Shown: positions 1 through 17,107, counted from the first letter of the stretch. The stretch: 64,000 bases of DNA from an uncultured Thermodesulfobacteriota bacterium (GCA_964474975.1 CAYYUX010000001.1:465-64464); one strand, 5' to 3'. The notes: generated by a model from the letters alone, not told the origin. A program made the numbers and translations.

Positions 1-15
1 CGCGCAAAAAAGGCC

Positions 16-567
16 ATGAAGGCGCTGAGGCACACCCTGCCCCTGCAGATTCTTGTGACCATGGGCTGGTGCGATGCCAATAACATTACGCTCAAGGTGC
101 TTAAGGCCCTCTCAGGGCTGAAAGACATTCAGATTACCGTTGTCCTTGGCCCGGATTACGCCTTTACGAAGACAATGGAGTCCTTTCAAACATTAAAAAA
201 TATTACATTCCGCCATAAGGTTAAGGATATGGCCCCTCTTATGGCCTCATCGCATATCGCCTTCACGGCCCTTGGCACTACGGTCTACGAGCTTGCCTTT
301 ATGGGTGTGCCGCCGATTATCATATCCAATTACAGAGATGATGAGAAGGACCTGGCGGCGCTACGAAAACTCAATGCAGGGGTGTCTCTCGGTTTTTACG
401 GGGGCGTCTCCGATGAGCTGATACGAGGCGCGGCCACGAGGTTTATTGAGGACGCATGGTACTGGCGCGAGGTCTCGTCGAAGGCGTCGAGGCTTACAGA
501 TGGGAGGGGCGCATGGAGAATCGCCTCAATCATCGCGGAACTCTATGGACGGAGGGCACGCTCATGA
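16..567 (+). CDS. Probable C-terminal part of a PseG-like UDP-sugar hydrolase (glycosyltransferase family 28 C-terminal domain); 5' end outside window, the ATG at 16 is probably internal
   Basis: Translation (…IAFTALGTTVYELAFMGVPPIIIS…LAALRKLNAGVSLG…) resembles the nucleotide-sugar-binding C-terminal half of MurG/PseG-type enzymes. Its stop overlaps the next gene's start (ATGA at 564-567). Context is a flagellin glycosylation operon ending in maf. Confidence 0.45.
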   Translation: MKALRHTLPLQILVTMGWCDANNITLKVLKALSGLKDIQITVVLGPDYAFTKTMESFQTLKNITFRHKVKDMAPLMASSHIAFTALGTTVYELAFMGVPPIIISNYRDDEKDLAALRKLNAGVSLGFYGGVSDELIRGAATRFIEDAWYWREVSSKASRLTDGRGAWRIASIIAELYGRRARS

Positions 568-1514
568 GAGGCGGCGATAACACCGCGATGGCCGTAGAGA
601 GGCTTCACAATGGCCCGTCATTGGGAGCCCATAAGGGCTACAGGGTAGTGGATTGTCTGGAGTGCGGTTTTGCGCATATTTTACCACTGCCTCCGCCTGA
701 GGAGCTTGATAGGATCTACAGGGATGAGTACTTCACTCTGGAAAAGCCTGATTTTATCCGATACGCGCGCGAGGACAGAGAGTGGTGGAATGTTGTTTAT
801 GACGAACGCCTCGATGGATTTGAATCAATGCTTTCAGGCGGCAAGAAGAGATTATTGGACGTTGGATGCGGGCCGGGTTTTTTTCTTAAGAGGGCGGCAA
901 AGAGGGGTTGGCGATGCCTCGGCGTGGAACCATCTAAAGAGGCCTCAGCCCATGCGAAAGGCCTCGGTGTAAATGTTATCAACGGGTTTTTCAATGGCAG
1001 GACCATGGGGGAAGAGGGCCTTGCCTATGATGCCGTGCATATCTCCGAGGTCCTTGAACACGTAGCCGACCCGCTGGCCGTCCTTGAGGATGTATATGGA
1101 CTCCTTGACGACGGAGGTCTTGTATGCGCCGTCTCGCCAAATGACTTCAGCCCCGTACAGAAGGTGCTACGCAGAAGGCTCGGTCATAAGCCCTATTGGA
1201 TATCCGTGCCTCATCACATCAATTATTTTTCCTTTGAGAGCATGAAGGCCTTATTGATTAGGGCGGGTTTTTCCATAGCTCGCGTAAGGGCCACCTTTCC
1301 AATGGATTTTTTTCTCCTCATGGGTAAGGACTACGTAGGTGACGATGCCCTCGGCAGGGAGTGTCATAAAATGAGAACAAGGCTCGACATCATGCTGACC
1401 GACCCCGGGCTCAAGGGCTTTAAGGACGAGATGTACGCCCTTATGGCGTCTCATAATATAGGCAGGGAATTCGTGATTTATGGAGTCAAGGGGAGAGTCG
1501 GAATAAAAGGATAA
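564..1514 (+). CDS. Class I SAM-dependent methyltransferase with an N-terminal Cys-x-x-Cys/His segment
   Basis: Motif I LLDVGCGPGFF and post-I acidic residue, plus motif II/III (LAYDAVHISEVLEHVADP, LLDDGGLV). N-terminal 'YRVVDCLECGFAHILP' resembles the small zinc-binding module of sugar C/O-methyltransferases. The start at 564 overlaps the upstream stop by 4 nt; the ORF tool's longer start at 456 lies inside the upstream gene. Confidence 0.7.
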   Translation: MRGGDNTAMAVERLHNGPSLGAHKGYRVVDCLECGFAHILPLPPPEELDRIYRDEYFTLEKPDFIRYAREDREWWNVVYDERLDGFESMLSGGKKRLLDVGCGPGFFLKRAAKRGWRCLGVEPSKEASAHAKGLGVNVINGFFNGRTMGEEGLAYDAVHISEVLEHVADPLAVLEDVYGLLDDGGLVCAVSPNDFSPVQKVLRRRLGHKPYWISVPHHINYFSFESMKALLIRAGFSIARVRATFPMDFFLLMGKDYVGDDALGRECHKMRTRLDIMLTDPGLKGFKDEMYALMASHNIGREFVIYGVKGRVGIKG

Positions 1515-1525
1515 AAGGAGGGGTA

Positions 1526-2791
1526 ATGGGGGAGGTAATAGTAATGCTGCCGGAATCACTTCCCGTGGCAATCCCGCTTGTTGAGTATGTCTTCGGCAGG
1601 GAGGGCGGCAAGGCAGTGGATTTACTGATACTTGAGAAGCAGAGGGAGACCTTTGGAGATCTTATAGGGCAGTATGCGTTCAGAAAGGTATATGTCCTTG
1701 ACGAGGAGTACTACGGCGGCCTGAAAGACCCCGCCTCCCTTGCGTTTATGAGAAATAAGGCGATAAACCCTTACGATACCTCATATTTCCCTGTTAATAC
1801 CTTCAGGGCCAACGCCTTTCTCTTCGGCTCCATCATAGCGGGCGAGGCTCTTGCCGTCAACTCATCGTTATTTAACGTGAGAGAGAGCCTCCCCGAGACA
1901 ACATGCTCCCTTAATGAAGTTAAGATGCCCGATAGCTCTATTCCATGGGCGGCTGAAATCGCTACGATTCGCGCGGTTCTCGCCGAGATTATCCATACCC
2001 TTTCCCCCATGGAGGATACGCTGAAGGTCTCGGGGGAGCGGCCGAACCTCGGCATCCTCAAGGGCTTCGGCCATGACCTTGAGATATTCATGAAGTACGC
2101 ATACGGGATAGGTCCGGCCCGCGGCGCGCGGGTCCTTGATATCGGCGGCGGGCTTGGGTACGGGTCCTATCTACTCTCAAAATTCGCCGAAGAGGTCGTC
2201 TTTCTTGACAGGTCGGCTGAGACCACGGACTTTGTGATGGGAACATGGGCCGCCATCGCGCCGAACCTGAAGGCTGTATGCGGCGAGGCCTCGGATTTAA
2301 AGGGGTCTTACGGGGAGTTTGATACTATTTTTTTAATGGACGTCATAGAGCATGTGGAAGACCCGAAAGGGCTGTTACGGGACGTCAAGTCTCTGCTGAA
2401 GCCCGGCGGCACGCTCGTCCTCAGCACGCCTGAGGAGGATTATTACCCTTACCGGGTATGCCCGGCGGAGCGGCGCGGCGAGGCCGAGGCCGCGCTCATA
2501 GGCGATGCTATCTGGCCGTGGCACATACAGGGCCTCGGAGAGGCGGCTATGATGCCCATGCTCAAGAACTCCGGTTTTGAGGTGATAGAGAAAAGCTATC
2601 TTACCTACGTAAAGGGCCATGAGATAAAGAAAAGGCTTCGTACAGCGAGACAGTGCCAAGACTCTTTCGCCCTTTTCAAGGCGGCTGAGGATATAACAAA
2701 ATGGGATGTCGATGATTTCGGCCTTACAGCCATGCGGGACCCGTGTTTCTCGGCCGCGTCATATAACGTAGTTGCTAAAAAGGAGGCATAG
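1526..2791 (+). CDS. Two-domain protein: about 170-aa N-terminal domain of unknown function fused to a class I SAM-dependent methyltransferase
   Basis: C-terminal half has VLDIGGGLGYGSYLL (motif I), FDTIFLMDVIEHVEDP and LKPGGTLVLSTP. RBS AAGGAGGGG lies 4-5 nt upstream of the ATG at 1526 (alternative ATG at 1544). Confidence 0.65.
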   Translation: MGEVIVMLPESLPVAIPLVEYVFGREGGKAVDLLILEKQRETFGDLIGQYAFRKVYVLDEEYYGGLKDPASLAFMRNKAINPYDTSYFPVNTFRANAFLFGSIIAGEALAVNSSLFNVRESLPETTCSLNEVKMPDSSIPWAAEIATIRAVLAEIIHTLSPMEDTLKVSGERPNLGILKGFGHDLEIFMKYAYGIGPARGARVLDIGGGLGYGSYLLSKFAEEVVFLDRSAETTDFVMGTWAAIAPNLKAVCGEASDLKGSYGEFDTIFLMDVIEHVEDPKGLLRDVKSLLKPGGTLVLSTPEEDYYPYRVCPAERRGEAEAALIGDAIWPWHIQGLGEAAMMPMLKNSGFEVIEKSYLTYVKGHEIKKRLRTARQCQDSFALFKAAEDITKWDVDDFGLTAMRDPCFSAASYNVVAKKEA

Positions 2792-3883
2792 GTGCGGACA
2801 AGGGCGGCCGTGCTGGAAAAAAAGGACGCTCCACTGGTTATAAGGAAGATAGAGGTGGGCCTGCCGGGACCCGATGAGGTCCTTGTGAAGATGGATATGG
2901 CGGGGCTCTGCAGGAGCGACCTTAACGCCATTACAGGGCATACAAGATACAATATGCCCCTTGTCCTCGGTCACGAGGGTGCAGGCACGGTGGTGGATAC
3001 GGGCCGTAATGTCATTGGATTCAAAAGCGGAGACACCGTGGCCCTGAGCTGGGCCGCCTATTGCGGGAGATGCTATTTCTGCGAGCGCGGTGAGTCGCAT
3101 CTCTGTCATACCGTGGCGTGGCCGCGAGGCAGGGGTTTTCTCCCCGATGGGACTACGAGGTTTCGGGGCGGGAAGGCCGAGAAAATATATCACTTTAACG
3201 GCGTATCGTCTTTTAGCGAGTATACCGTTGTACACAAGACGAGTTGTGTGCCCACCCCGAAGGCCCTGCCTCTCTACGTTAGCGCGGCAACGGGGTGTTC
3301 TGTTGTAACGGCCATTGGAGCCGTATTCAGGACTGCCGGGCCATACCTTAAGAGCAACGCCACTGTTATGGTGGTTGGAGGCGGCAGTGTTGGGGCGGCC
3401 CTGTTGCAGGCCCTGAGGCTCAGGGGCGCGGGCAGGATTATCCTCATTGAAAAAGATGAAAAGAAGTGGAAGGCCCTGCCGGCGGATTACTATGCGCCGA
3501 GTATCGTATCTTTTGATATGGAGAGGCATACGTCAGGTATGGGCGTTGATATATGTTTTGACTGCGTGGCCTCAAAGGAGACTATAGAAAGGTCCATGGG
3601 GGCCGTTAGAAGGGGCGGAACGGTTGTAATGGTCGGCGCCCCTCATCCGAACTTGAAGATAGGGCTTAAGGCCGTTGATTTTCATCTTGAGAAGAGGCTC
3701 ATTGGTTCGCTTTACGGCTCATCAAATCCCCAAAGGGATATGCCCATGGTATTTGATTTTTACAAGAGGGGACTGCTTGACCTTAATGCCTCACGCGCGG
3801 AGACATACGGCCTTGGCGATATAAACCTTGCCGTTGAATCTCTTCGGGAGAAGGGCGGTAAATTCATCATAACATTTGATTGA
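2792..3883 (+). CDS. Zn-dependent alcohol dehydrogenase (MDR superfamily), GTG start
   Basis: Catalytic Zn ligands in CRSDL…GHEGAG, structural Zn Cys cluster CGRCYFCERGESHLC, and Rossmann motif VVGGGSVGAALLQA. Start abuts the previous stop (2789-2791 TAG, then GTG). Confidence 0.75.
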   Translation: MRTRAAVLEKKDAPLVIRKIEVGLPGPDEVLVKMDMAGLCRSDLNAITGHTRYNMPLVLGHEGAGTVVDTGRNVIGFKSGDTVALSWAAYCGRCYFCERGESHLCHTVAWPRGRGFLPDGTTRFRGGKAEKIYHFNGVSSFSEYTVVHKTSCVPTPKALPLYVSAATGCSVVTAIGAVFRTAGPYLKSNATVMVVGGGSVGAALLQALRLRGAGRIILIEKDEKKWKALPADYYAPSIVSFDMERHTSGMGVDICFDCVASKETIERSMGAVRRGGTVVMVGAPHPNLKIGLKAVDFHLEKRLIGSLYGSSNPQRDMPMVFDFYKRGLLDLNASRAETYGLGDINLAVESLREKGGKFIITFD

Positions 3884-3943
3884 AAGGCGGAAGCTCCGTC
3901 ATGAGGACGGTTGATGTTTTGTTTAAAAAAAAGGAGGACTCTT

Positions 3944-4636
3944 ATGAGGTTATTTCTCGATACAGCTGATATTAAAGAGATAAAAAAGGCAAAGTCGTGG
4001 GGGGTGTTAAGCGGTATAACGACAAATCCATCTATAATCGCGAGGCAGAAAAGAGATTTTCTCTCCCTTGCGAGAGAGATATGCGAGCTTGTTTATCCCA
4101 ATCCCGTGAGCCTTGAGGTCGTGGAGCGAGAGGCCGGTCCAATGGCGGATCAGGCCAGAAGGCTCGCCGAGATTTCGCGCAACGTCGTGGTTAAGCTTCC
4201 TGCCAATCCCGCCGGCATGGAGGCCTTGAACCTTATCCGCGGAGAGTCCATAAAGACGAACCTTACCCTTATCTTTTCTCCGACGCAGGCCCTGCTTGCC
4301 GCCATGGCCGGGGCTACTTTCATCAGCCCCTTTATAGGCAGGCTTGAGGACAGGGGCTATAACGGGCTCGGACTTATACGTGAGCTTATGGAGGCCTTTT
4401 CGCACCATGATACGGAGACGGAGGTCATCGCCGCGAGCATCCGTGACCCTCATCAGATAGTGGAGATAGCAAGGGCCGGTGTTCAGATAGCCACCGTGCC
4501 CTTTGTAGTGCTTGAGAAGATGCTCCTTAACAATATGACGGATATGGACCTTGAGAAGTTTTTAAAAGACTGGGAGGAGGTGCCGGGTCGTGAGCATGCC
4601 TTTAGAGAAGATATCAGAAAGGCCGCTGGAGCTTAG
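3944..4636 (+). CDS. Transaldolase / fructose-6-phosphate aldolase family (TalC/MipB-like small transaldolase)
   Basis: MRLFLDTADIKEI…SGITTNPSI…VVKLPANPAGMEAL…TLIFSPTQALLAAMAGATFISPFIGRLED are the hallmark blocks of the about 215-aa transaldolase/FSA family. Good RBS (AAGGAGG) upstream of the ATG at 3944. The tool's 3911 start is probably an artefactual extension. Confidence 0.7.
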   Translation: MRLFLDTADIKEIKKAKSWGVLSGITTNPSIIARQKRDFLSLAREICELVYPNPVSLEVVEREAGPMADQARRLAEISRNVVVKLPANPAGMEALNLIRGESIKTNLTLIFSPTQALLAAMAGATFISPFIGRLEDRGYNGLGLIRELMEAFSHHDTETEVIAASIRDPHQIVEIARAGVQIATVPFVVLEKMLLNNMTDMDLEKFLKDWEEVPGREHAFREDIRKAAGA

Positions 4637-5639
4637 GGCGGCCGTATTTAAGGGACCCGGGGAGCTTGGCATAAGGCGATGTAGCTTCGCGGGGATTAAA
4701 AAGAACGAGGTCCTTGTCTCTATAAAGGCATGCGGTATATGCGGGAGCGACCTTAATATTTTTCACAGGGATCCTCCTGTGCCCATGTACTGGGCGGGCC
4801 ATGAGATAAGCGGCGTCGTCGCGGAGCTTGGCCCCGGTGTAAGGGGTCTTAAGCGGGGTGCCCGCGTGTGCCTGTCTCCCCTTGTGCCATGCATGAGGTG
4901 CCGTCCCTGCAGGAGCGGCCGCGATAATCTCTGCGAGAACTCCACTTTTGTTAGTTTTAACCGGCCCGGCGGGTTTGCCGATATGGTGGCCCTGTCTGCC
5001 TCCAATGTCTTTGAGATACCTGAGGGAATGGGTTTTACGGAAGCCGTGCTCGTCGAGCCCTTTGCCGACGCCCTGCACGCCATATCCGTGGCAGGGAGGA
5101 TGGCAGGTAAAAGGGCGCTCGTAATAGGTTGCGGCACCCTGGGGCTGCTTACCGTCAAGGCCCTTTGTCTTGAGGGGGCTTCGTCTGTGAGCGTGCTTGG
5201 CAGATACCCTTACCAGAGAGAACACGCCCTGTCCATGGGGGCGGATAGGGCCATGGACCCGGAAGACGCCGCCTCGGGACTGCGTGACAAGGGACCCTTT
5301 GATGTGGTCTTTGAGACTGCGGGAGGCTTTGGGAGCGACTCCATTACATTGTCCATAGAGGCCCTTGCGGGCAGAGGCATAATGGTCCTATCAGGCGTGC
5401 ACTACAATACGCCGCGCATGAACCTCAAGGACCTTACAGAGAAGGAGATTCAGATAAGGGGCGCTCAGCGTTACAGAAAGAAAGACTTTAATATGGCCCT
5501 TGCCCATTTTGCCTCTGGAAAGGTAGAGGCGCGGGGGCTGATAACCCACAGAGTGAGCCTTGAAGACATTATGGAGGGCTTTGATATCGCCTTCCATAAA
5601 AAGCAGACAAAGGCCGTAAAGGTGGTGGTATGTCCGTGA
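4590..5639 (+). CDS. Zn-dependent alcohol/polyol dehydrogenase (threonine/sorbitol dehydrogenase-like MDR)
   Basis: CGICGSDLNIF…GHEISGVV catalytic Zn site, structural Zn CMRCRPCRSGRDNLC, and nucleotide fold LVIGCGTLGLL. 5' end overlaps the aldolase gene by about 45 nt; exact start is uncertain (ATG 4590 or 4596). Confidence 0.7.
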   Translation: MSMPLEKISERPLELRAAVFKGPGELGIRRCSFAGIKKNEVLVSIKACGICGSDLNIFHRDPPVPMYWAGHEISGVVAELGPGVRGLKRGARVCLSPLVPCMRCRPCRSGRDNLCENSTFVSFNRPGGFADMVALSASNVFEIPEGMGFTEAVLVEPFADALHAISVAGRMAGKRALVIGCGTLGLLTVKALCLEGASSVSVLGRYPYQREHALSMGADRAMDPEDAASGLRDKGPFDVVFETAGGFGSDSITLSIEALAGRGIMVLSGVHYNTPRMNLKDLTEKEIQIRGAQRYRKKDFNMALAHFASGKVEARGLITHRVSLEDIMEGFDIAFHKKQTKAVKVVVCP

Positions 5640-6880
5640 ATGTAGCAGGGAAAAAAATACTTGTAATATCAGGGGGCGTAGAGGCCCTGCCCATCATTGA
5701 GAAGGCAATTGATATGGGCCTTTATGTCCTTGTATCTGACGGCGATATGTCTGCCCCGGGCCTTGCCCTTGCCCATGAGGCAATTATCGCCAGCACATAC
5801 GACGCGGAAAAGACCCTGGAGCTTGCCCGTTCCACGGACCCCAACAGGCGTATAGCGGGCGTTATATCGGCGGCCGCCGATGTGCCCCGAACCGTTGCCC
5901 TCGTGGCCGATGCCCTGGGGCTCCCGGGGCCTTCACCCCGCTCGGCGCTCCTTGCAGGCAACAAGTTTCTTATGAAGATGGCCTTTAAGGATATGGGGCT
6001 GGCCGTGCCGTGGTTTGCCATGATAAACGGCCCTGACGATTTAAAGGCCCTTACACGCGGCTCGGCCAAGGCCTTTGTTGTAAAACCCGTTGACAGCCGG
6101 GGCGCGCGCGGTGTAATTCGGCTTACGAAGGATGTTGACTGCGGATGGGCCTTTTTTGAGGCAAAAAAGAACGCGCCATCAGGCGCTGTAATGGTCGAGG
6201 AATGGATAGACGGGATACAACTCAGCACAGAGTCCGTTGTGGCCGGGGGGACCGTGGCCACACCGGGATTATCTGAGAGAAATTACGAGTATATCGAGAG
6301 GTTCGCCCCATATGTCATAGAAAACGGCGGCGACCTTCCGGCCCGTCTTGAAGAGCAGACACTCAAGGCCCTCAACGAGCTGATACTCGGCGCGGCGCGT
6401 GCCTTTGGCATTGATGACTGGACCATAAAAGGCGATATCGTCTTGAGCGATAAAGGCCCCGTCATCATAGAGGCCGCGCCGAGGCTGAGCGGCGGTTATT
6501 TCTGCACTCACACCATACCCCTCTCATCGGGCGTCGATATTGTCGAGGCGGCCATACTGCTCGCGTTGGGCATAAAAGTATCTGTAGCGGATTACAACCC
6601 CAAATTCACCAAATTCATCTCGCAGAGGTTCTGGTTCCCCGAAGAAGGGCTCGTTAAAGAGGTATGCCGAAAATCGGGCCTTGAGTCCATGGCCGGGCTT
6701 GAGATGATGAGACTGCATGTGAGAGAAGGCGATACCATCTCTCCCATGGTCTCGCATCCGTCCCGGGCCGGGATGGTTATCACATCAGGGCGCTCAAGAG
6801 AGGAGGCCGTGGCCCGGGCAAGCGATGCCATCTCCGCTGTGAAAATAATAACTGAAAAACCCATGAGGATGGCGCGGTGA
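5630..6880 (+). CDS. ATP-grasp domain ligase (carboxylate-amine ligase type)
   Basis: N-terminal pre-ATP-grasp Rossmann-like region (KILVISGG…), central ATP-grasp fold (…AFVVKPVDSRGARGVIRL…MVEEWIDGIQLSTE…) and a C-terminal substrate domain. Start overlaps the upstream stop (ATG…TGA overlap at 5630-5639). Confidence 0.65.
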   Translation: MSVNVAGKKILVISGGVEALPIIEKAIDMGLYVLVSDGDMSAPGLALAHEAIIASTYDAEKTLELARSTDPNRRIAGVISAAADVPRTVALVADALGLPGPSPRSALLAGNKFLMKMAFKDMGLAVPWFAMINGPDDLKALTRGSAKAFVVKPVDSRGARGVIRLTKDVDCGWAFFEAKKNAPSGAVMVEEWIDGIQLSTESVVAGGTVATPGLSERNYEYIERFAPYVIENGGDLPARLEEQTLKALNELILGAARAFGIDDWTIKGDIVLSDKGPVIIEAAPRLSGGYFCTHTIPLSSGVDIVEAAILLALGIKVSVADYNPKFTKFISQRFWFPEEGLVKEVCRKSGLESMAGLEMMRLHVREGDTISPMVSHPSRAGMVITSGRSREEAVARASDAISAVKIITEKPMRMAR

Positions 6881-8478
6881 TGATAAAGAGAATACTCCTT
6901 CTTCAGCCTAATATGAAGATAGCCACCTCGGGCCAGCGCATAGTCTATCCGCCCATGGGTATCCTCTATCTTGCCTCCGTGCTTGAGGTCGAAGGTTACA
7001 CTGTAGCAATACTCGATTGTCAGACAGAGGGCCTCGATAGAGATGCGCCTCTGCGCGGCGGTTATGTGGATGTAGGCATCCCCATGGAAGAGATTGGCGC
7101 GAGGATTTTAAAGTTCAAACCGGACCTTGTCGGCATAAGCTGTAATTTTTCCGTAATGGTCGGCTCCATGAACGAGACGGCAAGACTCGTCAAGGAGCTT
7201 TTGCCGTCTGCCGTAGTGGTGGCGGGAGGCAATCACCCCACTTCCATGGCAGAGGAGGTTATGGAAAACCAGGCCATAGATTTTGTCCTGAAGGGTGAGG
7301 CCGAGCTATCATTTCCCGCCCTTCTTGCCGCCATGGAAGGGGATTGCGGGGGCTGTGAAGACTGCGATTGCGGCAAGGAGAGCAAAAAGAGTAGCGGCAG
7401 TAATGAGGATAATGATAAGGATGTCAGCGAGCCTCTTGCCTATAGTGCCGTGCCGGGCCTTGTCTGGAGAGATGGCGGCGTTGTGGTAAGTAACGCTCAG
7501 GGACCTTTTATTAAAGACCTCGATTCGTTGCCCTTTCCGGCGTGGCATCTTTTTCCATACGAAAAATATTCCAGCTTCTATAAACCCAAAAAAGTCACCT
7601 GGGGTCAGCCGCAGGCCATGCCCACGGTTCTTACAACGCGGGGATGCGCCGGCACATGCGTTTTCTGCTCAGTACACAGGACCATGGGAAGAAAATTCCG
7701 GGCGAGAAAGCTTGACGAGGTCTTTCGTGAGATAAGGTTTCTTGTAGATACATACAAGATAAGAAAACTCATGATAATAGACGACAACTTCACCCATGAC
7801 AGGGCGCGGGCAAAGGAGTTCTGCGATGAGTTCAAGAGGCAGGGCTTTAATATTGAGATACACTTCATGGTTCTTGCCCTCTGGTGCATGGACGAGGAGC
7901 TTATAGATAAACTCGTGGAGATAGGATGCGTCTCAATGGGTTTTGCCATAGAGTCCGGCGTGCAGGACGTGCTTACAAAGGTTGTTAAAAAACCCCTTAA
8001 GCTTACAAGGGCCATGGAGGTCCTTCGCTACGCAAAGAAGCAGGGCGTCTTTCTTACGGGGACCTTTGTCATAGGACTTCCCGGTGAGACTAAAAAAGAC
8101 ATCAGAAGGTCGCTCTACATGGCGAACTACAGCGGTCTCTTTGATAGCAGAGAGATTTATATCGCTACGCCCCTGCCCGGCACGGAGCTCTTCGGCAGGT
8201 GTGAGAGCGAGGGGCTATTCGCCGAGGGCTTCAGCTACGATAGGCTTGAGGTGGTAAAACCCAATATCACGACAGGGGATTTTACCGCAGGTTACATCGA
8301 GACAATAGTCGAAGCCGACAGGACTCATCACCTTATAAAGTCCAACCCTGCACATGCCCCGCATTATATAGCCGACGTTTGGCGGCGAAAGAGGCCCATT
8401 TTCATGAACGTCCTTTTTGAGACATCAGGCATGTTCATAAAATACGATCTACTTAAGATGAAGGAGAGCTATCCGTGA
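6877..8478 (+). CDS. B12 (cobalamin)-binding radical SAM enzyme
   Basis: N-terminal B12-binding domain pattern (ILLLQPN…PPMGILYLASVLEVEGYTVAILDC…GISCNFSV…VVVAGGNHPT), then a radical-SAM cluster motif CAGTCVFC (CxxxCxxC). Contains an unusual Cys/Asp-rich insert GDCGGCEDCDCGKESKKSSGSNEDNDKD. ATGA overlap with the upstream gene. Confidence 0.7.
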   Translation: MMIKRILLLQPNMKIATSGQRIVYPPMGILYLASVLEVEGYTVAILDCQTEGLDRDAPLRGGYVDVGIPMEEIGARILKFKPDLVGISCNFSVMVGSMNETARLVKELLPSAVVVAGGNHPTSMAEEVMENQAIDFVLKGEAELSFPALLAAMEGDCGGCEDCDCGKESKKSSGSNEDNDKDVSEPLAYSAVPGLVWRDGGVVVSNAQGPFIKDLDSLPFPAWHLFPYEKYSSFYKPKKVTWGQPQAMPTVLTTRGCAGTCVFCSVHRTMGRKFRARKLDEVFREIRFLVDTYKIRKLMIIDDNFTHDRARAKEFCDEFKRQGFNIEIHFMVLALWCMDEELIDKLVEIGCVSMGFAIESGVQDVLTKVVKKPLKLTRAMEVLRYAKKQGVFLTGTFVIGLPGETKKDIRRSLYMANYSGLFDSREIYIATPLPGTELFGRCESEGLFAEGFSYDRLEVVKPNITTGDFTAGYIETIVEADRTHHLIKSNPAHAPHYIADVWRRKRPIFMNVLFETSGMFIKYDLLKMKESYP

Positions 8479-8508
8479 TACAGGGCTTTTTATCGGGGGG
8501 ATTATAAG

Positions 8509-10575
8509 ATGGCGGGGTTGTCTCTTTACGCTCTTTTTCACTGCAACCTTGCCTTCTCGCTTATAGGGAGAGAAGAGTTCAGGGCGGTTATCAAGAGGTG
8601 CTATCGTCCGTTGCTTGAGTTAGCCGGGGAGGGGCTTCCCATTGGTATAGAGATGAGCGCATGGACCCTTCGTCAGGTTCATCAACTTGAGCCTGATTTC
8701 ACAAGGAGGCTCAGCGATTTATGGGGGGCGAAGAGGCTGAGTTTCATCGGCTCGGGTTACGCCCAATCCATAATGCCGCTGATACCGGCAGAGGTGAACC
8801 GCTGGAACCTGAGGCTCGGCAATAAGTACTATGAGCAGATACTTGGCAGGGCCCCGAGCATTGCCCTTGTAAACGAGCAGACTTTTTCATCGGGGCTTGT
8901 AGGCCTTTATAAAGAGGCCGGCTACGAGACCATTATCATGGACTGGAATAATTCATGCCGTCATAAGAATTTTTCAAATCAAAGATTGTACTCTCCTCAG
9001 AGGGCCGCGGGAAGGTCGCCCGGTGAGGAGATAGGGCTCCTTTGGTCTCACTCCATCGCCTTTCAGAAGTTCAGTCGGTGCGTTCACGGCGAGTTTTCAC
9101 AAAAAGAATATATGGATTATCTTCTCTCCCATCATGAAGAGGGCGAGGAGAGGGCCTTTGTCGCCTACTCCAACGATGCCGAGGTCTTTGATTTTTGCCC
9201 CGGCAGAGGGGAGTCTCCGCGAGGCGACTTTGAGAGGGTAAGGGAGCTGTTAAAGGGGATAATGGACGAGAAGAGATTCGTCCTCTTAACACCTGAGGAA
9301 ATTTTAAATAAATTCAAGCCAGACCCATCTGCCGGACCCATGAGACTTGAGTCCGTTGAGACCCCCGTGGTCTCCAAGAAGCAGGAGAGGTATAACCCCG
9401 TCAGGTGGTCTGTAACGGGAAGGGACAGCGCCCATATAAACGCGCGGTGTCATACTTTGTATAAAAGGCTTGAGGCAATCTTCAGAGATGGAGGCGTAAA
9501 AGAAAAAGATATATTACGTGAAAAACTCTGCGAGTTCTGGGGCTCTGATTTCAGGACAAATACCTGCGACGACAAGCTCCGGTACTTTAACGAATCCATG
9601 GGGTGGCTGAGTCTTGAGACGGAACGCCTCCTGAGAGAGGCAGGGCTTGATGTGACCGAAGCGCTCCGCCCTTCCGAAGTATTCAGCGTTACAAAAGAGA
9701 GGGCTTCCGCGGGCATGGTCTTATGCGGCGCGGGTCTTTGCAGAGGGCCGTGGCCGGGGCAGTCTGTCAGGGGCTTTAACGCACTTGAGGTGGACGATGA
9801 TAAAAGGCGGGTGACTATCCGCGCACAAGAAGTGGAGCTGACCCTATTAAAAGACAGGGGGCTGGCCCTTTCTTCGGCGTCCTTTCCGGGGATTTCGGAT
9901 AAAGCTCTACTCGGCACCCTCGGCCACGGGTATTTTGATTCCATTGAACTCGGCGCGGATTTTTTTTCCGGCCACCTTATACATACGAGCCGGGACGGGG
10001 TAAAGACTACGGATCTTTGCCCCGCGCCTCACACTATCAGGGAAGATAGCGGCGGGCTGAGTATCTCCTCGGACATCGAGACACCCATAGGCCTCCTTGA
10101 AAAGACTTATCATATTCCGCGCCGCGGGGCGGAATTCTCCCTTACTTACAAGATAAAGGCCCCGGCCCTTCAGGCCTCAAGCCTCCGTCTCGGCATATTT
10201 ACCTTCATGCCCGAGGCATTTGATGTAGATGAGCTTTGGTTTGAAACGGTAAACGGCGGAATGGGGCCTGAGAGGTTTTATCTGAAGGGGCACAGGCTCT
10301 CTCACGACGAGCCCGTGAGCCCGGCCATCTCGGCATCGGGATGCCTCGGAGCCACAGAGGGATGGGTGGCCTTTGGCGATACAGAGAAAAGTCTTATCAT
10401 CAGCTCGGAGAGGCGTTTTGTACACACTGTACCCATGATAAATTACAGGGAATCCGGTGACAAGTTTTTCCTTCGCCTCTATCATTCCGCGGGAGAGCTT
10501 GATGATACCTCGTACTGGCTGTGGCGCGGAAGCAATGAAGTAACATTTATCATAAGGGCCAAGGGTCCGGCGTGA
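8509..10575 (+). CDS. Large (688 aa) protein with an N-terminal glycoside-hydrolase-family-57-like domain; catalytic role uncertain
   Basis: N-terminus 'LYALFHCNLAFSLIGREEFRAVIKRCYRPLLELAGE…IIMDWNN' parallels the GH57 'hNHQPxxNF…FEEAYEKCYxPxLExL…VIVDDYHF' blocks. The His-Gln-Pro signature is replaced by His-Cys-Asn. The remaining about 450 aa are unassigned. Fold similarity was judged by eye only. Confidence 0.4.
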   Translation: MAGLSLYALFHCNLAFSLIGREEFRAVIKRCYRPLLELAGEGLPIGIEMSAWTLRQVHQLEPDFTRRLSDLWGAKRLSFIGSGYAQSIMPLIPAEVNRWNLRLGNKYYEQILGRAPSIALVNEQTFSSGLVGLYKEAGYETIIMDWNNSCRHKNFSNQRLYSPQRAAGRSPGEEIGLLWSHSIAFQKFSRCVHGEFSQKEYMDYLLSHHEEGEERAFVAYSNDAEVFDFCPGRGESPRGDFERVRELLKGIMDEKRFVLLTPEEILNKFKPDPSAGPMRLESVETPVVSKKQERYNPVRWSVTGRDSAHINARCHTLYKRLEAIFRDGGVKEKDILREKLCEFWGSDFRTNTCDDKLRYFNESMGWLSLETERLLREAGLDVTEALRPSEVFSVTKERASAGMVLCGAGLCRGPWPGQSVRGFNALEVDDDKRRVTIRAQEVELTLLKDRGLALSSASFPGISDKALLGTLGHGYFDSIELGADFFSGHLIHTSRDGVKTTDLCPAPHTIREDSGGLSISSDIETPIGLLEKTYHIPRRGAEFSLTYKIKAPALQASSLRLGIFTFMPEAFDVDELWFETVNGGMGPERFYLKGHRLSHDEPVSPAISASGCLGATEGWVAFGDTEKSLIISSERRFVHTVPMINYRESGDKFFLRLYHSAGELDDTSYWLWRGSNEVTFIIRAKGPA

Positions 10576-10599
10576 CCCCCTTAAGAGACGGGAGTTGAG

Positions 10600-12516
10600 A
10601 TGAGTATATTCGAGAAAAACTACGATGTAATCGCGCAAAAAGACAGTATCCTCGCCGATAGGCTCCGTGCCTTTAGCGGCGAGAGGGCCTCTGTCGAGCG
10701 GGCCGCCAATAAAGAGTTTGTACTGCGCTTCAAGGGCCGTCTCTTTAATAGCGCTTACGGGCCATGGAAGGAGGCATCCCTGCAGGCAGAGGAGATAATG
10801 AACAAAAAAGCGGACTGTGTGGCCCTCTTCGGCCTTGGTTGCGGCTACCTGCTTCGCACCCTTTTGAAGTTGGAGACAAAAAAGATATTTATTTTCGAGC
10901 CTTCCATGGAGATACTTACAGGCGTGCTGGAAAAAATAGACCTTAGCTCTGAGCTGAAGGGGCAGAATGTTTTCCTTGCCAATTATATAGGGCCTTTTGT
11001 CTCATGGATTCAGCGCTTTACCGAGGGCTTCGATAATATCATAGGCTACCATACCATGCCTTACAGATTGACCTTTCCCCATGAGCTAAGGGATTTCATG
11101 GTTAAGATAGAGAACGCCCATACCTCGCAGAAGGTCGGCATAAAGACGGAGATAGATTCAAGGGTGGACTGGCTGAAAAATTATTTTTCCAATCTAGAGT
11201 CATTCTTTACTTATCCCTCAGTAGACGTCCTTACGGAGAGGTTAAAGGGAATTCCCATGATCATCGTAGGCGCGGGGCCGTCTCTCAGTAAAAACGCCGC
11301 CCTCCTCGCGGAAATAAAAGACAAGGCCTTTATAGTATCGGCCATTACGGCCTATAAGAGCCTCTTGAAGTTAGGCGTTGTCCCCCATGCCGTGATAGCC
11401 GGGGAAAAGGTAGACCTTGACGAGTATTTTGACGGCGGCGAGCCCGATAGAGAGATTCGTCTCATCTTATCAGAGGTCTCTCACCCGGCAATGTTCCGTA
11501 GAGAGGCCAGCGGTAAATTTATCTTTTACAGCCCCTATATAGCCCTCAGCCTCGAGCAGGCAAGCCTCTGGGGAAGCTCCTCCTTTGTATCAATAGGAGG
11601 GTCTGTAACTACGGCCATTTTTGACATGGGCGTCAAGTTCGGCTGTGACCCCATTGTTTTTATCGGACAGGACCTTGCCTTTGAGAATGGACATAGTCAC
11701 GCGTCGGGAGGTGTTTATGACGGGCAGAGGGTCGTTATTGATAAAGAAAGGGGGGTTGTTGAGGTAAGAGAACACTATATTTCCGGCCATAAGCGCACTA
11801 TGCGCCACAAGCTTCAGTGGCTTAAGGATATTGAGGGCAAACCTGTTGCGAGTAAATATGACTGGGTTACCTTTCACCAGTGGTTTGAGCGTTATATGAT
11901 TCTTCTGAAAGAGGAATACCCCGATATACGTGTCGTTAACGCCACTGAAGGCGGCGCCTTTATAAAGGGCATGGAGCATAAGCCCCTTAAAGAGGTTATC
12001 TCAAAATATATCCTTGATCCCGAGCCCGTGGAGGATATTCTTGCTTCTGCGGCGGCCATGCGTCCCGAGGTGGATACGGCAGGTCTTGTAGAGGCCTTTA
12101 AGAGACTGGAGCTGAATGTAGCCCTTGTCTCAAAACTTTCATCGCAGATTGTAGCAGAGGCGGAAAAGATGCGGACAGCCTTTCAGATGAAAGGCCTTCG
12201 CACAGAACTTGGCGATAACCTTGGGAAGATAAGAAAGAAGGAGAAAAAACTTTTTAATGCCGCCCGCAAGGTAGCTTTTCTATGGGAGGCCCTTGTGGAG
12301 TACACCTACGACCTTAAGAGCTACCTTAAAGAGGCAGTTGACCGCTCCACGGAAGATCAGTTCAGTAAAGACATCGAGCGTACGATACGCACATACACGG
12401 AGGTGAGAAAGAAATGCGATCTCTTCGCCCCCATGGTGCGTGAGGGCCTTTCGTATGTAAGGCTTCTTCATGAGAGGTCAGCTCAGGACCGGCCCGTAGC
12501 CGTTAATCATAGATAA
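10600..12516 (+). CDS. maf: Motility accessory factor (Maf family, DUF115/MptE-like) - flagellin nonulosonic-acid glycosyltransferase
   Basis: Characteristic Maf N-terminus MSIFEKNYDVIAQKDSILADRLRAF. Central MptE-like domain with the IVGAGPSL motif. About 640 aa in length, located immediately upstream of the flagellin locus. Confidence 0.75.
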   Translation: MSIFEKNYDVIAQKDSILADRLRAFSGERASVERAANKEFVLRFKGRLFNSAYGPWKEASLQAEEIMNKKADCVALFGLGCGYLLRTLLKLETKKIFIFEPSMEILTGVLEKIDLSSELKGQNVFLANYIGPFVSWIQRFTEGFDNIIGYHTMPYRLTFPHELRDFMVKIENAHTSQKVGIKTEIDSRVDWLKNYFSNLESFFTYPSVDVLTERLKGIPMIIVGAGPSLSKNAALLAEIKDKAFIVSAITAYKSLLKLGVVPHAVIAGEKVDLDEYFDGGEPDREIRLILSEVSHPAMFRREASGKFIFYSPYIALSLEQASLWGSSSFVSIGGSVTTAIFDMGVKFGCDPIVFIGQDLAFENGHSHASGGVYDGQRVVIDKERGVVEVREHYISGHKRTMRHKLQWLKDIEGKPVASKYDWVTFHQWFERYMILLKEEYPDIRVVNATEGGAFIKGMEHKPLKEVISKYILDPEPVEDILASAAAMRPEVDTAGLVEAFKRLELNVALVSKLSSQIVAEAEKMRTAFQMKGLRTELGDNLGKIRKKEKKLFNAARKVAFLWEALVEYTYDLKSYLKEAVDRSTEDQFSKDIERTIRTYTEVRKKCDLFAPMVREGLSYVRLLHERSAQDRPVAVNHR

Positions 12517-12691
12517 ATGGAAGCGGAGTCCATCAAGCCCTCCCCGCTGTCCATGAATGAGTTTAAAATTACAATGAAGGAAATCCTTGAAAATCCCGGA
12601 AAACTAAAAATCATGTTCTTATTTTTTTGTCTTCGCTAATTAACGTGGGCATTATTATGTGCTTCCATGGCAGATAAAGAAGGAGCCTGTT

Positions 12692-13297
12692 ATGACGGAT
12701 ATATACCTTGACGATACGAGGCTGGAGATAGGTGGCGCTGACGCCGCATCTACTATCGGCGATATTATTGTGGCTGTGGAAGAGGACCTTAAACCCTTCC
12801 GGCGTTTTATTCAGGAGCTATGGCTCGATGGCTTTAATGCGGGTATCGGATGGAAGGATACCGTGGCCGTCAATGAGCCTTTTGAGCTATATGGAGAGCT
12901 AAAGCTCTTTAGCGGCGATGTAGACCCCATAGTCCTGAAAGGGATTTATACGGTGAGTGAGTATATTGATTTTATTTGTACTCTCATTAACGATACCTCT
13001 TCCGCCCTCAGACGCGGTGCTGGAGAAGTAGACAACCTCCTTGGAGCGATTATCGAGAGTACCGGAGAGGTTATCAGAACCATGGATTCACTCTACAGGT
13101 GCGGTCTATCCTATGAGATAGATATATTCAGAGAAAATCCCATATCCTGTTACGAGGCAATTTTAAGGAATATGTCGGAGCTGAAAGACGCCCGTTTGTC
13201 ACGGGACAATATCCTGCTTGCCGATATACTGCAGTATGAGCTCGGTCCGCTACTGATACAGATGGAGGAAAAGGTCTTTTACCGAAAAGATATGTGA
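12692..13297 (+). CDS. Hypothetical acidic protein (about 200 aa) between maf and fliC
   Basis: Intact ORF with a reasonable RBS (AAGGAG at about 12678) before the ATG at 12692; alternative upstream ATG at 12659. No motif recognised. Sits directly upstream of the fliC sigma-28 promoter. Confidence 0.4.
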   Translation: MTDIYLDDTRLEIGGADAASTIGDIIVAVEEDLKPFRRFIQELWLDGFNAGIGWKDTVAVNEPFELYGELKLFSGDVDPIVLKGIYTVSEYIDFICTLINDTSSALRRGAGEVDNLLGAIIESTGEVIRTMDSLYRCGLSYEIDIFRENPISCYEAILRNMSELKDARLSRDNILLADILQYELGPLLIQMEEKVFYRKDM

Positions 13298-13305
13298 GCG
13301 GTAGC

Positions 13306-13332
13306 TAAAGGTTCTTACCCAACTGCCGATAA
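13306..13332 (+). promoter_or_regulatory. sigma-28 (FliA) class-III promoter for flagellin
   Basis: TAAA(13306-13309)-N15-GCCGATAA(13325-13332) is an exact match to the TAAA-N15-GCCGATAA consensus, about 120 nt upstream of the fliC start. fliA is encoded in this window. Confidence 0.6.
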
Positions 13333-16190: not shown

Positions 16191-16530
16191 GAAGACGGCC
16201 CGTATGGGCTTGCTGGAGAGATTGCTTGATATCGCGAGGGCCCAGAAAAAGCTTCTCTCAGAGAACCGTCTTGGCGAGCTTGCAAAGACCATGGCCGAGC
16301 GTGATGATGTTGTATCTCGTCTGAAGTCCGCGGGAGCCCCGGCAGGAAAGGAAGAAGGTAATATTCTTAAAAAAATACTGGATTACGACAGTAATCTCAG
16401 AGTCTCTCTTGAAGTTGAGCTTGAGGAAATCCGTCGTGAACTTGAGAAATTATCAGACTGTAATGTGGTTAATAAGGCCTACCTATCCACTCAGGTAAAG
16501 ACGGTAGAGAGGAGTTTACGAAATGGATAA
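16180..16530 (+). CDS. Small coiled-coil protein, FlgN/FliT-like flagellar export chaperone candidate
   Basis: About 116 aa, helical heptad-rich (LLERLLDIARAQKKLLSENRLGELAKTMAERDDVVSRL…), matching the FlgN pattern (LxxLLxxExxxLxxL…K…L…D…L). Position after fliS is typical for fliT/flgN. Start is ambiguous (GTG 16138 or ATG 16180). Confidence 0.4.
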   Translation: MGAEKTARMGLLERLLDIARAQKKLLSENRLGELAKTMAERDDVVSRLKSAGAPAGKEEGNILKKILDYDSNLRVSLEVELEEIRRELEKLSDCNVVNKAYLSTQVKTVERSLRNG

Positions 16531-17107
16531 TGCTAACGAAAGAGACGAGGTGATGTATATGGTCGGCATGATCTCCAATAGCAGGGAATACGTAAGGATA
16601 GATGACAGTATACCTGTTTATTACGTGCTTAAGGATGGCGCCAATATTACGGATAGCTCCGTGAATATTCGTGAATTAAGGCATTTTTCAAAAAAGGTGG
16701 AGGCCATATCCTCAGACGACCCGGAGATGTATTCCCTGCTCTTTGAGATAAACCAGAGGCTCAAGACGCTTATGACCAATGCCGCTACGGAACAATGCTT
16801 TGAGATACCCGAGGCGCGTATAGAGAACATCAGCGGCGGCGGACTTAAGATACTCTGCAACAAGAACTTCAACGAGGGCGACGAGCTTCTCATTAGGCTC
16901 TTTCTGCCAGATCATGCGCAGGATCTTGAGGTAACGGGAGAGGTCGTATGGATATGTGAGAACATCGATGGCGGATACAAGGTGGGAATAAAGTTTGTTG
17001 ATATTGATGAGAGGGCGAGAGAGAGAATAGTAAGATACATCTTCGCCTGGCAGAGACGGATGCTTAGGGCCGGCAGAGAAGCCGGTGGCGCGCAGGCCGG
17101 AAAGTAA
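16523..17107 (+). CDS. PilZ-domain (c-di-GMP-binding) protein, YcgR-like candidate
   Basis: RxxxR (REYVR) and D/NxSxGG (ENISGGG) PilZ signature motifs. Beta-barrel-like C-terminal half (…LLIRLFLPD…EVTGEVVWICE…YKVGIKFVDI…). Encoded convergently with motAB. Confidence 0.7.
   Translation: MDNANERDEVMYMVGMISNSREYVRIDDSIPVYYVLKDGANITDSSVNIRELRHFSKKVEAISSDDPEMYSLLFEINQRLKTLMTNAATEQCFEIPEARIENISGGGLKILCNKNFNEGDELLIRLFLPDHAQDLEVTGEVVWICENIDGGYKVGIKFVDIDERARERIVRYIFAWQRRMLRAGREAGGAQAGK

Follow-up and report, generated by a model that had tools for sequence, protein, structure and literature searches.

Pseudaminic acid (Pse) modified with a di-O-methylglyceroyl group is found on the flagellin of Campylobacter jejuni. 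Many bacteria cannot assemble the filament without nonulosonate glycans on their flagellin, and these glycans also shape phage and immune recognition, yet little is known of the enzymes that make their non-acetyl substituents. Here we describe a locus that gives a concrete candidate gene set for such a substituent. It lies in a 64,000-nucleotide (nt) stretch of DNA from an uncultured Thermodesulfobacteriota bacterium (GCA_964474975.1 CAYYUX010000001.1:465-64464; the whole stretch is called the window below), in which ten genes at positions 1-12516, the last of them the flagellin glycosyltransferase gene maf, precede the flagellin gene fliC.

Two described systems come closest to it. In Shewanella oneidensis, the sfmABCDE cluster encodes a NeuB-like protein, an acetolactate synthase (ALS)-like thiamine pyrophosphate (TPP) enzyme, a FabG-like reductase, a 395-amino-acid (aa) methyltransferase, and a 412-aa ATP-grasp protein; it adjoins maf-2 and glfM and is required for normal motility and flagellin modification, in an organism that also has Maf-1 and has no clear PseH, PseG, PseI, and PseF orthologues (PMC3765264). 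The glycan combines mono-N-acetyl Pse (a C11H18N2O6 residue, 274 Da) with a nitrogen-free, O-methylated C9H16O7, C10H18O7, or C11H20O7 moiety (PMC3765264). As late as 2023, the Pse of S. oneidensis was still called substantially modified and made by proteins of unknown function (bioRxiv 10.1101/2023.12.03.569772). The second precedent is FlaB of Treponema denticola, which, according to a paper that cites Kurniyati et al. 2017 and models the glycan (PMC13439194), carries a 2-methoxy-4,5,6-trihydroxy-hexanoyl nonulosonate of the L-glycero-L-manno configuration on Ser/Thr. We did not find the side-chain biosynthesis of either glycan described in the literature searched.

The locus in the window resembles that of S. 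oneidensis in being Maf dependent and of Pse type and in combining an accessory carbon-carbon bond-forming enzyme, a reductase, an S-adenosylmethionine (SAM) methyltransferase, and an ATP-grasp protein, the analogy being one of composition only. Indeed, a transaldolase, two alcohol dehydrogenases (ADH1 and ADH2), the methyltransferase MT2, and an ATP-grasp ligase stand beside maf and pse genes in the window, but the enzymes belong to different families: S. oneidensis has an ALS-like TPP enzyme (SfmB) and FabG (SfmC), whereas the window has the transaldolase, two zinc-type ADHs, and a B12-radical SAM enzyme. With T. denticola, the likeness is one of product, since an O-methylated, partly deoxygenated polyhydroxy-acyl group on a Pse-configured nonulosonate is the class of product predicted for the window.

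Compared with the canonical PseB-C-H-G-I-F pathway of Campylobacter and Helicobacter, PseB and PseC pass their models, and PseG-like, NeuB/PseI-like, and cytidylyltransferase proteins are present in the expected roles. The differences are that the island has no PseH, that the latter three proteins score below the equivalog cut-offs, that its core adds a class-III aminotransferase, a GFO or aldo/keto reductase (AKR) oxidoreductase, the methyltransferase MT1, and a protein resembling glycoside hydrolase family 57 (GH57), and that it also holds the ATP-grasp ligase and a variable cassette. A preliminary description of this DNA had placed the extra enzymes outside the canonical Pse and legionaminic acid pathways, which our analysis supports. 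The island most likely makes a flagellar sugar with an unusual, uncharacterised side chain. As the best explanation, to which we assign a probability of roughly 0.55, the ATP-grasp ligase would replace PseH and attach a methylated polyhydroxy acid, made by the cassette, to Pse.

A Pse-type flagellin glycosylation island without PseH

Judged by its gene families and their synteny, the locus can be assigned as a Maf-dependent, Pse-type flagellin glycosylation island that has no PseH gene of its own. Ten plus-strand open reading frames (ORFs) are arranged in a co-directional and tightly packed order, and the ORF list, Pfam, and NCBIfam confirmed the family that had been named for each of them:

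1..567, plus strand: PseG-like protein, 3' part (TIGR03590, 66.6 bits on the fragment; GT28 C-terminal domain)
564..1514, plus strand: MT1, class I SAM methyltransferase, 316 aa, with an N-terminal CxxC (Methyltransf_23, 81 bits)
1526..2791, plus strand: MT2, class I SAM methyltransferase, 421 aa (Methyltransf_23, 61.6 bits, residues 198-355)
2792..3883, plus strand: ADH1, zinc-type medium-chain dehydrogenase of the class I/III ADH group (ADH_N, 92 bits; ADH_zinc_N, 65 bits)
3944..4636, plus strand: short (type 3B) transaldolase, 230 aa (TAL_FSA PF00923, 168 bits; TIGR00875, 254.8 bits against a cut-off of 245.95)
4596..5639, plus strand: ADH2, zinc-type polyol/ketose-reductase-like dehydrogenase (ADH_N, 94.8 bits; Glu_dehyd_C, 48.7 bits)
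5630..6880, plus strand: ATP-grasp carboxylate-amine ligase, L-amino-acid-ligase-like, 416 aa (LAL_C2, 54.3 bits; ATP-grasp_3, 37 bits)
6880..8478, plus strand: class B (B12-binding) radical SAM enzyme, 532 aa (B12-binding PF02310, 78.6 bits; Radical_SAM PF04055, 73.7 bits)
8509..10575, plus strand: GH57-like protein, 688 aa (Glyco_hydro_57 PF03065, 62.5 bits against a cut-off of 21.2)
10600..12516, plus strand: Maf-type flagellin nonulosonic-acid glycosyltransferase, 638 aa (MptE-like PF01973, 113.6 bits against 34.6; Maf_flag10_N PF20157, 26.9 bits against 23.5)

The genes upstream of the window were read on the JGI metagenome contig Ga0256727_1000002 (181.6 kb; L125 in our numbering of loci), which shares 99.6% identity with the window over 20.5 kb. 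Both the GH57-like protein and MT2 have exact matches on this contig, and MT1 differs between contig and window. The contig carries, in order, an FlgL-like gene (cut), CsrA, FliW, and then the seven genes that precede MT1, namely PseB, PseC, a NeuB+SAF protein, a CTP_transf_3 cytidylyltransferase, a class-III aminotransferase resembling glutamate-1-semialdehyde (GSA) aminomutase, a GFO/IDH/MocA oxidoreductase, and the PseG-like gene, whose complete form begins 429 nt before the window's first position and encodes a protein of 331 aa. The whole unit therefore comprises 17 genes from pseB to maf, between fliW and fliC, and the window carries the distal ten. The ten-gene operon of the preliminary description is thus correct as far as it goes, but it is the distal part of a longer unit that extends upstream of MT1 by seven genes, among them the 5' part of the PseG-like gene. 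The several ATGA overlaps described there came down to four overlapping junctions among the successive gaps from the PseG-like gene to maf (-4, +11, 0, +60, -41, -10, -1, +30, and +24 nt), with a literal ATGA at the PseG/MT1 junction only.

A search just upstream of the window for the remaining pse genes, which had been suggested as a check, recovered both initial enzymes. PseB scored 488.9 bits against the TIGR03589 equivalog cut-off of 407.75, and PseC scored 459.4 bits against the TIGR03588 cut-off of 423.5 over its full ORF (L125:2617-3822). The JGI call of PseC begins at an internal methionine and gives 321 aa; the open frame has 401 aa and overlaps the end of pseB by about 77 nt. No gene of an acetyltransferase family (PseH) was found between fliW and fliC in L125 or in its relatives L085 and L086, where the gene order begins with FlgK and FlgL and continues through a hemerythrin-like gene and FliW to PseB, PseC, and the later genes. 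On L125, csrA and fliW (693-1402) lie directly 5' of pseB, and the island is thus placed between the translational-control pair of flagellin and the flagellin gene.

The order of the ten genes is repeated in five full-length relatives (L004, L005, L007, L008, and L011) with 50 to 84% protein identity to the window, and part of it is found in L015, L010, and L093, which are affected by ORF calling or by a contig end. Since the same order recurs in relatives, the arrangement is not due to chance. The base composition gave no clear sign of recent transfer (GC content of 0.51 to 0.57 in the island against about 0.51 in the window).

A conserved ATP-grasp/GH57-like pair and a variable cassette

To place the island among its relatives, GTDB genomes were scanned with an alignment of the GH57-like protein. 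This confirmed 498 relatives, of which the best 80 of 498 were kept as loci; the counts below are over 82 loci, in which ORFs were called crudely and clustered and family representatives were annotated. The loci came from Thermodesulfobacteriota/"Deltaproteobacteria," Acidobacteriota, Nitrospirota, Actinomycetota, Chloroflexota, Planctomycetota, Patescibacteria, and other metagenome-assembled genomes (MAGs). The most frequent companion of the GH57-like gene was the ATP-grasp gene (61/82 loci), followed by MT1 (45/82, usually directly after the PseG-like gene), the PseG-like gene (44/82), a short-chain dehydrogenase/reductase (SDR; 39/82), Maf (30/82, with maf following the GH57-like gene), the NeuB-like gene (27/82), the class-III aminotransferase (24/82), CTP_transf_3 (21/82), a split transketolase (18/82), the B12-radical SAM enzyme (17/82), the main KduI/IolB cluster (14/82; a second, smaller KduI-like cluster exists), an ALS-like TPP enzyme (8/82), the transaldolase (7/82), and MT2 (7/82). 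MT1 belongs to the conserved core and not to the variable cassette. MT2, on the other hand, is cassette specific, being limited to the seven loci with a transaldolase-type cassette.

Sixty-eight loci had enough upstream sequence to be evaluated. The ATP-grasp gene lies immediately 5' of the GH57-like gene in 28 of them, and in another 27 it is on the same strand and no more than four genes upstream (55/68). Some of the remaining loci are ORF-calling artefacts; in L001, for example, RefSeq annotates the two genes as adjacent. In a second, independent sample of loci, obtained by a metagenome scan with the GFO protein (relatives at no more than 53% identity), the GH57-like gene follows the ATP-grasp gene in all loci that have one (8/8). 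ATP-grasp and the GH57-like protein are a conserved pair across phyla, inside Pse-type loci.

The slot between MT1 and the GH57-like gene is variable. It holds a transketolase in 17 to 18 loci, KduI/IolB in 16, an ALS-like TPP enzyme in 8, and a transaldolase in 9, the last figure being the one reached after ORF-caller artefacts had been corrected with a tblastn table. Nearly all cassettes include an SDR or an ADH and often an additional methyltransferase. The full cassette of the window (MT2, ADH, transaldolase, ADH, ATP-grasp, and B12-radical SAM) is a rare type, present in the source strain (L002/L125) and the five full-length relatives. Closely related groundwater MAGs have MT1, MT1, SDR, ATP-grasp, KduI, and the GH57-like gene in the same place (L009, L012, L014, L033, and L084-L091), and a cassette of exactly the S. 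oneidensis composition (TPP enzyme, SDR, 411-aa methyltransferase, and ATP-grasp) lies beside the GH57-like gene in eight fetched loci. Both the ATP-grasp/GH57-like pairing and the modular organisation of the cassettes appear undescribed in the literature searched; comparative papers on the glycosylation islands of Geobacillus and Clostridium make no mention of a transketolase, ATP-grasp, radical SAM, aldolase, or glycoside hydrolase.

The same module occurs in a cultured sulfate reducer, Solidesulfovibrio carbinolicus DSM 3852, on plasmid pDCAR1 (NZ_CP026539.1, 87-99 kb). The gene order there is pseF, PseG-like, MT1, FabG, split transketolase, 415-aa methyltransferase, ATP-grasp, GH57-like, pseB, pseC, and the GH57-like and ATP-grasp proteins are 34% and 42% identical to those of the window, respectively. 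Unlike the window, this module has a transketolase-type cassette, lies on a plasmid, and has no maf or fliC within the 32 kb inspected. The corresponding survey locus (L001; NZ_CP026539.1, 79.8-111.7 kb, of a 133-kb plasmid) also contains several more radical SAM genes, together with another split transketolase and a glycosyltransferase of the TIGR04372 family.

Seven acidobacterial loci (L040, L045, L059, L066, L067, L069, and L082) share a core of DegT, NeuB-like, CTP_transf_3, class-III aminotransferase, aldo/keto reductase, PseG-like, ATP-grasp, and GH57-like genes. Behind this core come a putative glycosyltransferase of 584 aa, GT4 enzymes, an amidotransferase resembling AsnB, and a flippase resembling Wzx; maf, fliC, and flagellar genes are absent, and the module presumably feeds a polysaccharide. 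Polysaccharide loci of other phyla contain the module as well. Such an arrangement, with core and pair followed by GT4, AsnB-like, and Wzx-like genes, would suit the view that the island of the window likewise decorates another surface glycan (lipopolysaccharide, exopolysaccharide, or S-layer) instead of flagellin. This is very improbable for the window, where the island ends in maf and lies between fliW and fliC in a 60-kb flagellar cluster, and where the order of maf, a 201-aa ORF, and fliC is kept in nearly all of 22 relatives. The operon had been described from the outset as one for flagellin nonulosonate glycosylation ending in maf, and this holds.

The ATP-grasp ligase tracks the cassette

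The nearest solved proteins of the ATP-grasp ligase are 4DIM and the L-amino-acid ligase 3VOT, at 48 bits, which represents a distant relation. A homologue search gave 1369 matches, none of which had more than a generic name, and no Shewanella protein was among the best 120 of the 1369. We then compared the ligases of different loci. Among the transaldolase-type loci, including the window, they are 52 to 66% identical, versus only 27 to 32% identical to those of the KduI-type loci. The flanking proteins, in contrast, are as alike between these two groups as within them (GH57-like, 57 to 63%; GFO, 59 to 65%; FliC, 81 to 88%). Clustering of all GH57-adjacent ATP-grasps separated a KduI-associated clade from a clade common to the transaldolase, transketolase, and TPP types.

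Because the clades of the ligase follow the class of the cassette while the flanking proteins do not, the ATP-grasp appears to read the cassette product, that is, to act as a specificity element. We propose that it is the element that recognises the cassette product and attaches the acyl group.

Cassette enzymes and the predicted side chain

The carbon-carbon bond-forming enzyme of the cassette scored 227 bits against the Thermotoga maritima transaldolase 1VPX versus 116 bits against the Escherichia coli fructose-6-phosphate aldolase (FSA) 1L6W. It has a Glu ('VSLEV') and a Phe ('ISPFIGR') rather than the Gln and Tyr of FSA, at what we take to be the positions that distinguish the two enzymes. 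The label "FSA-like," given to it in the preliminary description, is accordingly withdrawn, and the protein is filed as a transaldolase, a predicted transferase of dihydroxyacetone units. Its score above the TIGR00875 cut-off and its resemblance to housekeeping type-3B transaldolases could also be taken to mean that it and the dehydrogenases are central-metabolism genes that are in the operon by chance. We find this scarcely credible, as the gene order is kept across genomes at only 50 to 67% protein identity, the reading frames overlap, and transketolase and TPP-enzyme cassettes take the same slot in other lineages.

ADH2 gave its best NCBIfam scores, both below cut-off, with L-threonine 3-dehydrogenase (163.8 bits) and L-idonate 5-dehydrogenase (158.7 bits), and its solved relatives include a ketose reductase, sorbitol dehydrogenase, and galactitol-1-phosphate 5-dehydrogenase. 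This grouping is consistent with the reduction of a keto group borne by the transaldolase product. For ADH1, the best NCBIfam models were those of the NDMA-dependent ADH and of thiol-dependent formaldehyde dehydrogenases, all below cut-off, and the nearest solved structure was S-(hydroxymethyl)glutathione dehydrogenase (168.6 bits).

The radical SAM enzyme has a CxxxCxxC motif at residues 256-263 (C256xxxC260xxC263) and the domains of class B. Its best NCBIfam match was Sden_1168, of a P-methyltransferase family, at 237 bits against a cut-off of 575, and it reached no equivalog cut-off. The nearest solved structure was the diol dehydratase AprD4 (6FD2, 80.7 bits); TokK aligned over the B12 domain only.

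MT2 has an N-terminal region of about 195 aa of unassigned fold, and its similarity to the 415-aa methyltransferase of S. carbinolicus is confined to the methyltransferase core. The presence of two SAM methyltransferases is what speaks for a working hypothesis of the preliminary description, in which the cassette makes a 2,3-di-O-methylglyceroyl N-acyl group and MT1 and MT2 perform the two O-methylations. But MT1 is a core gene that occurs with every cassette type and in non-flagellar loci and is not paired with MT2, and a glyceroyl group would need neither the two dehydrogenases nor the B12-radical SAM enzyme. Furthermore, a transaldolase moves a C3 unit onto its acceptor, so that a chain of C4 to C6 or longer is more likely than one of C3. 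The characterised precedents with similar gene logic carry C6 and about C9 moieties. With nothing specific to support it, a C3 group is improbable.

KduI and KduD chemistry yields 2-keto-3-deoxy-hexonate, so that the KduI/SDR cassette of the sister loci would naturally lead to a 3-deoxy-2-O-methyl-hexonoyl group like that of T. denticola. We infer that the 3-deoxy-hexonoyl skeleton of T. denticola fits this cassette better than the transaldolase cassette of the window, which in turn predicts the gene content of the T. denticola locus.

The GH57-like protein

We next considered the partner of the ATP-grasp ligase. An AlphaFold2 (AF2) model of the GH57-like protein, made with a 34-sequence alignment, had a predicted local distance difference test (pLDDT) score of 87 and consisted of a (beta/alpha)7 barrel, a helical region, and a C-terminal beta-sandwich. 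In a Foldseek search of the PDB with this model, the Thermococcus litoralis GH57 4-alpha-glucanotransferase 1K1X came first, followed by GH38 alpha-mannosidases, and a profile search of PDB sequences with the family returned 1K1W alone (E = 1.9e-11). The likeness to the T. litoralis enzyme thus extends to the three-part architecture, a Pfam match above threshold, and the alignment of the catalytic Glu and Asp: the invariant E123 aligns with E123 of 1K1W, and D223/E225 align with D214/E216, where E123 and D214 of 1K1W are, as we take them to be, the nucleophile and the acid/base. Both catalytic residues are invariant in the 34 homologues, and the protein looks catalytically competent. The preliminary description had called it diverged and GH57-like; the family assignment stands and the catalytic pair is nevertheless kept.

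What separates the family from GH57 (1K1W) is an identity of only about 13% to solved GH57 enzymes, its tie to nonulosonate loci, and C-terminal invariant polar residues of its own. The latter are H473, D484, D502, K532, R656, E663, and D665 in the beta-sandwich (residues 440-688; window positions ~9826-10575), which hints at a second functional site beside the barrel. No informative domain fusions were seen in homologues of 763 to 773 aa, in which PF03065 alone was detected. A role as a carbohydrate esterase family 4 (CE4)-type N-deacetylase was considered and rejected as the primary reading, given that the GH57 nucleophile and acid/base are kept and that the three-domain fold matches GH57/GH38.

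In the fetched loci, the GH57-like gene always stands beside the ATP-grasp gene in nonulosonate loci and never in a glycogen or starch context, which argues for a substrate other than alpha-glucans or alpha-galactosides. As it accompanies the ATP-grasp gene whatever the cassette, its product probably acts in a step common to all variants. We found no paper connecting GH57 ("family 57") with pseudaminic acid in the literature searched.

The conserved glycosidase residues also bear on a different reading of the locus, in which no N-acyl chain is built and both the cassette and the GH57-like protein instead work on the sugar skeleton itself or contribute a second sugar-like unit. Here a sugar (phosphate) would be lengthened or remodelled by the transaldolase or transketolase and then coupled or released by the GH57-like protein, acting as a retaining transglycosylase or hydrolase, and the ATP-grasp ligase would be used otherwise, for example, in amidating a carboxylate. 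The invariant catalytic Glu and Asp and a whole fold of glycosidase type agree with this, as do the natures of transaldolase, transketolase, and KduI/IolB, which are all sugar or sugar-acid enzymes; the conserved aminotransferase and oxidoreductase could create an extra sugar amine. The C9H16O7 moiety of S. oneidensis, moreover, would fit a methylated octose-type glycosyl equally well and is lost like a glycosidic unit in collision-induced dissociation (PMC3765264). We nevertheless regard this reading as doubtful. It leaves the amine exposed by the absence of PseH to be dealt with, the ligase clades track the cassette type, as they should if the ligase handles the cassette product, and the cassette has no nucleotide-sugar activating enzyme for a second sugar. 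The T. denticola glycan, too, is described as a hexanoyl (acyl) substituent.

Proposed pathway

Our preferred reading, in which the ATP-grasp ligase takes the place of PseH, can be set out as a sequence of steps. First, judging by their family membership, PseB and PseC would convert UDP-GlcNAc to UDP-4-amino-4,6-dideoxy-beta-L-AltNAc. Second, the ATP-grasp ligase would acylate the free amine (the future N7 of Pse), at the stage of the UDP-sugar or later, a role assigned to it because the island has no PseH acetyltransferase. The acyl group would be built by the cassette: with a ketose phosphate as donor, the transaldolase would pass a dihydroxyacetone (C3) unit to an acceptor aldehyde, ADH2 would reduce the resulting ketone, ADH1 and the B12-radical SAM enzyme would tailor the chain (by oxidation/reduction, C-methylation, or deoxygenation), and MT2 would O-methylate it. 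The PseG-like, NeuB-like, and CTP_transf_3 proteins would then complete and CMP-activate the nonulosonate. Finally, Maf would transfer the sugar to Ser/Thr of flagellin, possibly aided by the 201-aa protein. The expected product is Pse with an O- and possibly C-methylated polyhydroxy-alkanoyl group, of the class of the T. denticola and S. oneidensis glycans.

A methylated, acyl-linked side chain, as the preliminary description had proposed, is in our view the most economical reading of an island that has no PseH and encodes an ATP-grasp carboxylate-amine ligase. Its statement that the chemistry is uncharacterised applies to the enzymes, but precedents exist in sfmABCDE of S. oneidensis (PMC3765264) and in the glycan of T. 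denticola (PMC13439194). The earlier interpretation is thus partly supported, being right in kind and not in its specific chemistry.

Several observations weigh against the proposed pathway. The PseG-like, NeuB-like, and cytidylyltransferase proteins all remain below the Pse equivalog cut-offs: the full PseG-like protein (L002/L125) scored 114.9 bits against the TIGR03590 cut-off of 153.55, the NeuB+SAF protein scored 356.9 against 399.65 with the NeuB model and 305.7 against 340.25 with the PseI model, and the cytidylyltransferase gave weak KdsB-type matches only. The final sugar may for this reason not be strict pseudaminic acid. PseH could be encoded elsewhere in the genome, of which the island and the window were seen. 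The reaction of the radical SAM enzyme could be a methylation or a dehydration. Zinc-type ADHs do not make carboxylates, which leaves the origin of the acid group without an assigned enzyme, and ATP-grasps of the L-amino-acid ligase type usually join amino acids. Four conserved core genes, those for the GH57-like protein, the class-III aminotransferase, the GFO oxidoreductase, and MT1, have no role in the pathway as proposed.

A broader proposal would give the GH57-like protein such a role. The ATP-grasp and GH57-like proteins would together be the constant core of a Pse pathway variant that spans phyla and is so far undescribed. In this variant, ATP-dependent N-acylation would replace PseH acetylation, exchangeable cassettes (transaldolase, transketolase, ALS-like TPP enzyme, or KduI/IolB) would supply different polyhydroxy acids, and the GH57-like protein would perform a reaction that is not known for GH57 on a nucleotide-sugar or acyl-sugar intermediate. 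We put this forward tentatively, as a proposal that is rather more apt to fail than to hold. If it is true, nonulosonate biosynthesis would gain an acylation route and the GH57 fold a new function; the system would be one for the modular diversification of surface nonulosonates and would offer parts for designer sialic-acid-like sugars. The gene logic matches the S. oneidensis and T. denticola glycans, and the proposal would then explain the flagellin glycans of Shewanella (+236-264 Da) and Treponema (methoxy-trihydroxyhexanoyl).

Maf, flagellin, and the surrounding flagellar genes

The distal end of the island and the flagellin gene are connected by the following features:

12517..12639, plus strand: putative 40-aa ORF that begins directly at the stop codon of maf and has a hydrophobic C terminus; annotated as a gene on the JGI contig
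12692..13297, plus strand: conserved 201-aa protein (no Pfam match at E<=0.01)
13306..13332, plus strand: sigma-28 (FliA)-type promoter motif, TAAAG-N14-GCCGATAA
13454..14296, plus strand: flagellin, 280 aa (Flagellin_N, 125.8 bits; Flagellin_C, 81.2 bits)

The promoter motif TAAAG-N14-GCCGATAA has a single match in the 64-kb window, with 0.01 expected by chance. Flagellin, whose gene lies 0.9 kb 3' of maf, has a Ser/Thr-rich central stretch and is the presumed acceptor. The operon had been described as directly upstream of a sigma-28-driven flagellin gene; the motif and the flagellin were found as stated, but the two genes are not directly adjacent, since the 40-aa and 201-aa ORFs intervene.

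Maf scored 129.9 bits with the NCBIfam PseD domain model, which is below cut-off. In L013, L016, and L018, Maf is encoded just 3' of the GH57-like gene as two ORFs, a catalytic N-terminal one of about 371 aa and a C-terminal one of about 257 aa. The two ORFs may reflect either a frameshift or a true split of the gene, and they are reminiscent of the interconversion that has been proposed between one-protein and two-protein Maf systems.

The 201-aa family was found in 22 loci and almost always lies between maf and fliC. It occupies the position of GlfM, a Maf specificity factor of 89 aa that forms a four-helix bundle and is encoded beside maf in Shewanella and in Gram-positive bacteria (bioRxiv 10.1101/2023.12.03.569772), the lengths being 201 aa versus 89 aa for Shewanella GlfM. 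When the protein was compared with FliS, FliT, and GlfM, the hhalign probabilities were no higher than 0.3%. A single-sequence AF2 model was unusable (pLDDT 42.8), with a low-confidence hint of four helices in the C-terminal half.

Downstream of flagellin, the window continues with FliD, FliS, FliT, and a PilZ protein, and its remainder is the main flagellar cluster (about 60 kb), with FliF, FliG, FliI, FliK, FlgE, and FlhA. Regulatory genes within it comprise the PilZ-domain protein after fliT and two sigma-54 response-regulator activators with a histidine kinase (window positions 16523-17107, 19538-20938, and 24438-25799). A 1089-aa HAMP-PAS-GAF-HD (GYP-type) protein is encoded on the minus strand at positions 57712-60981.

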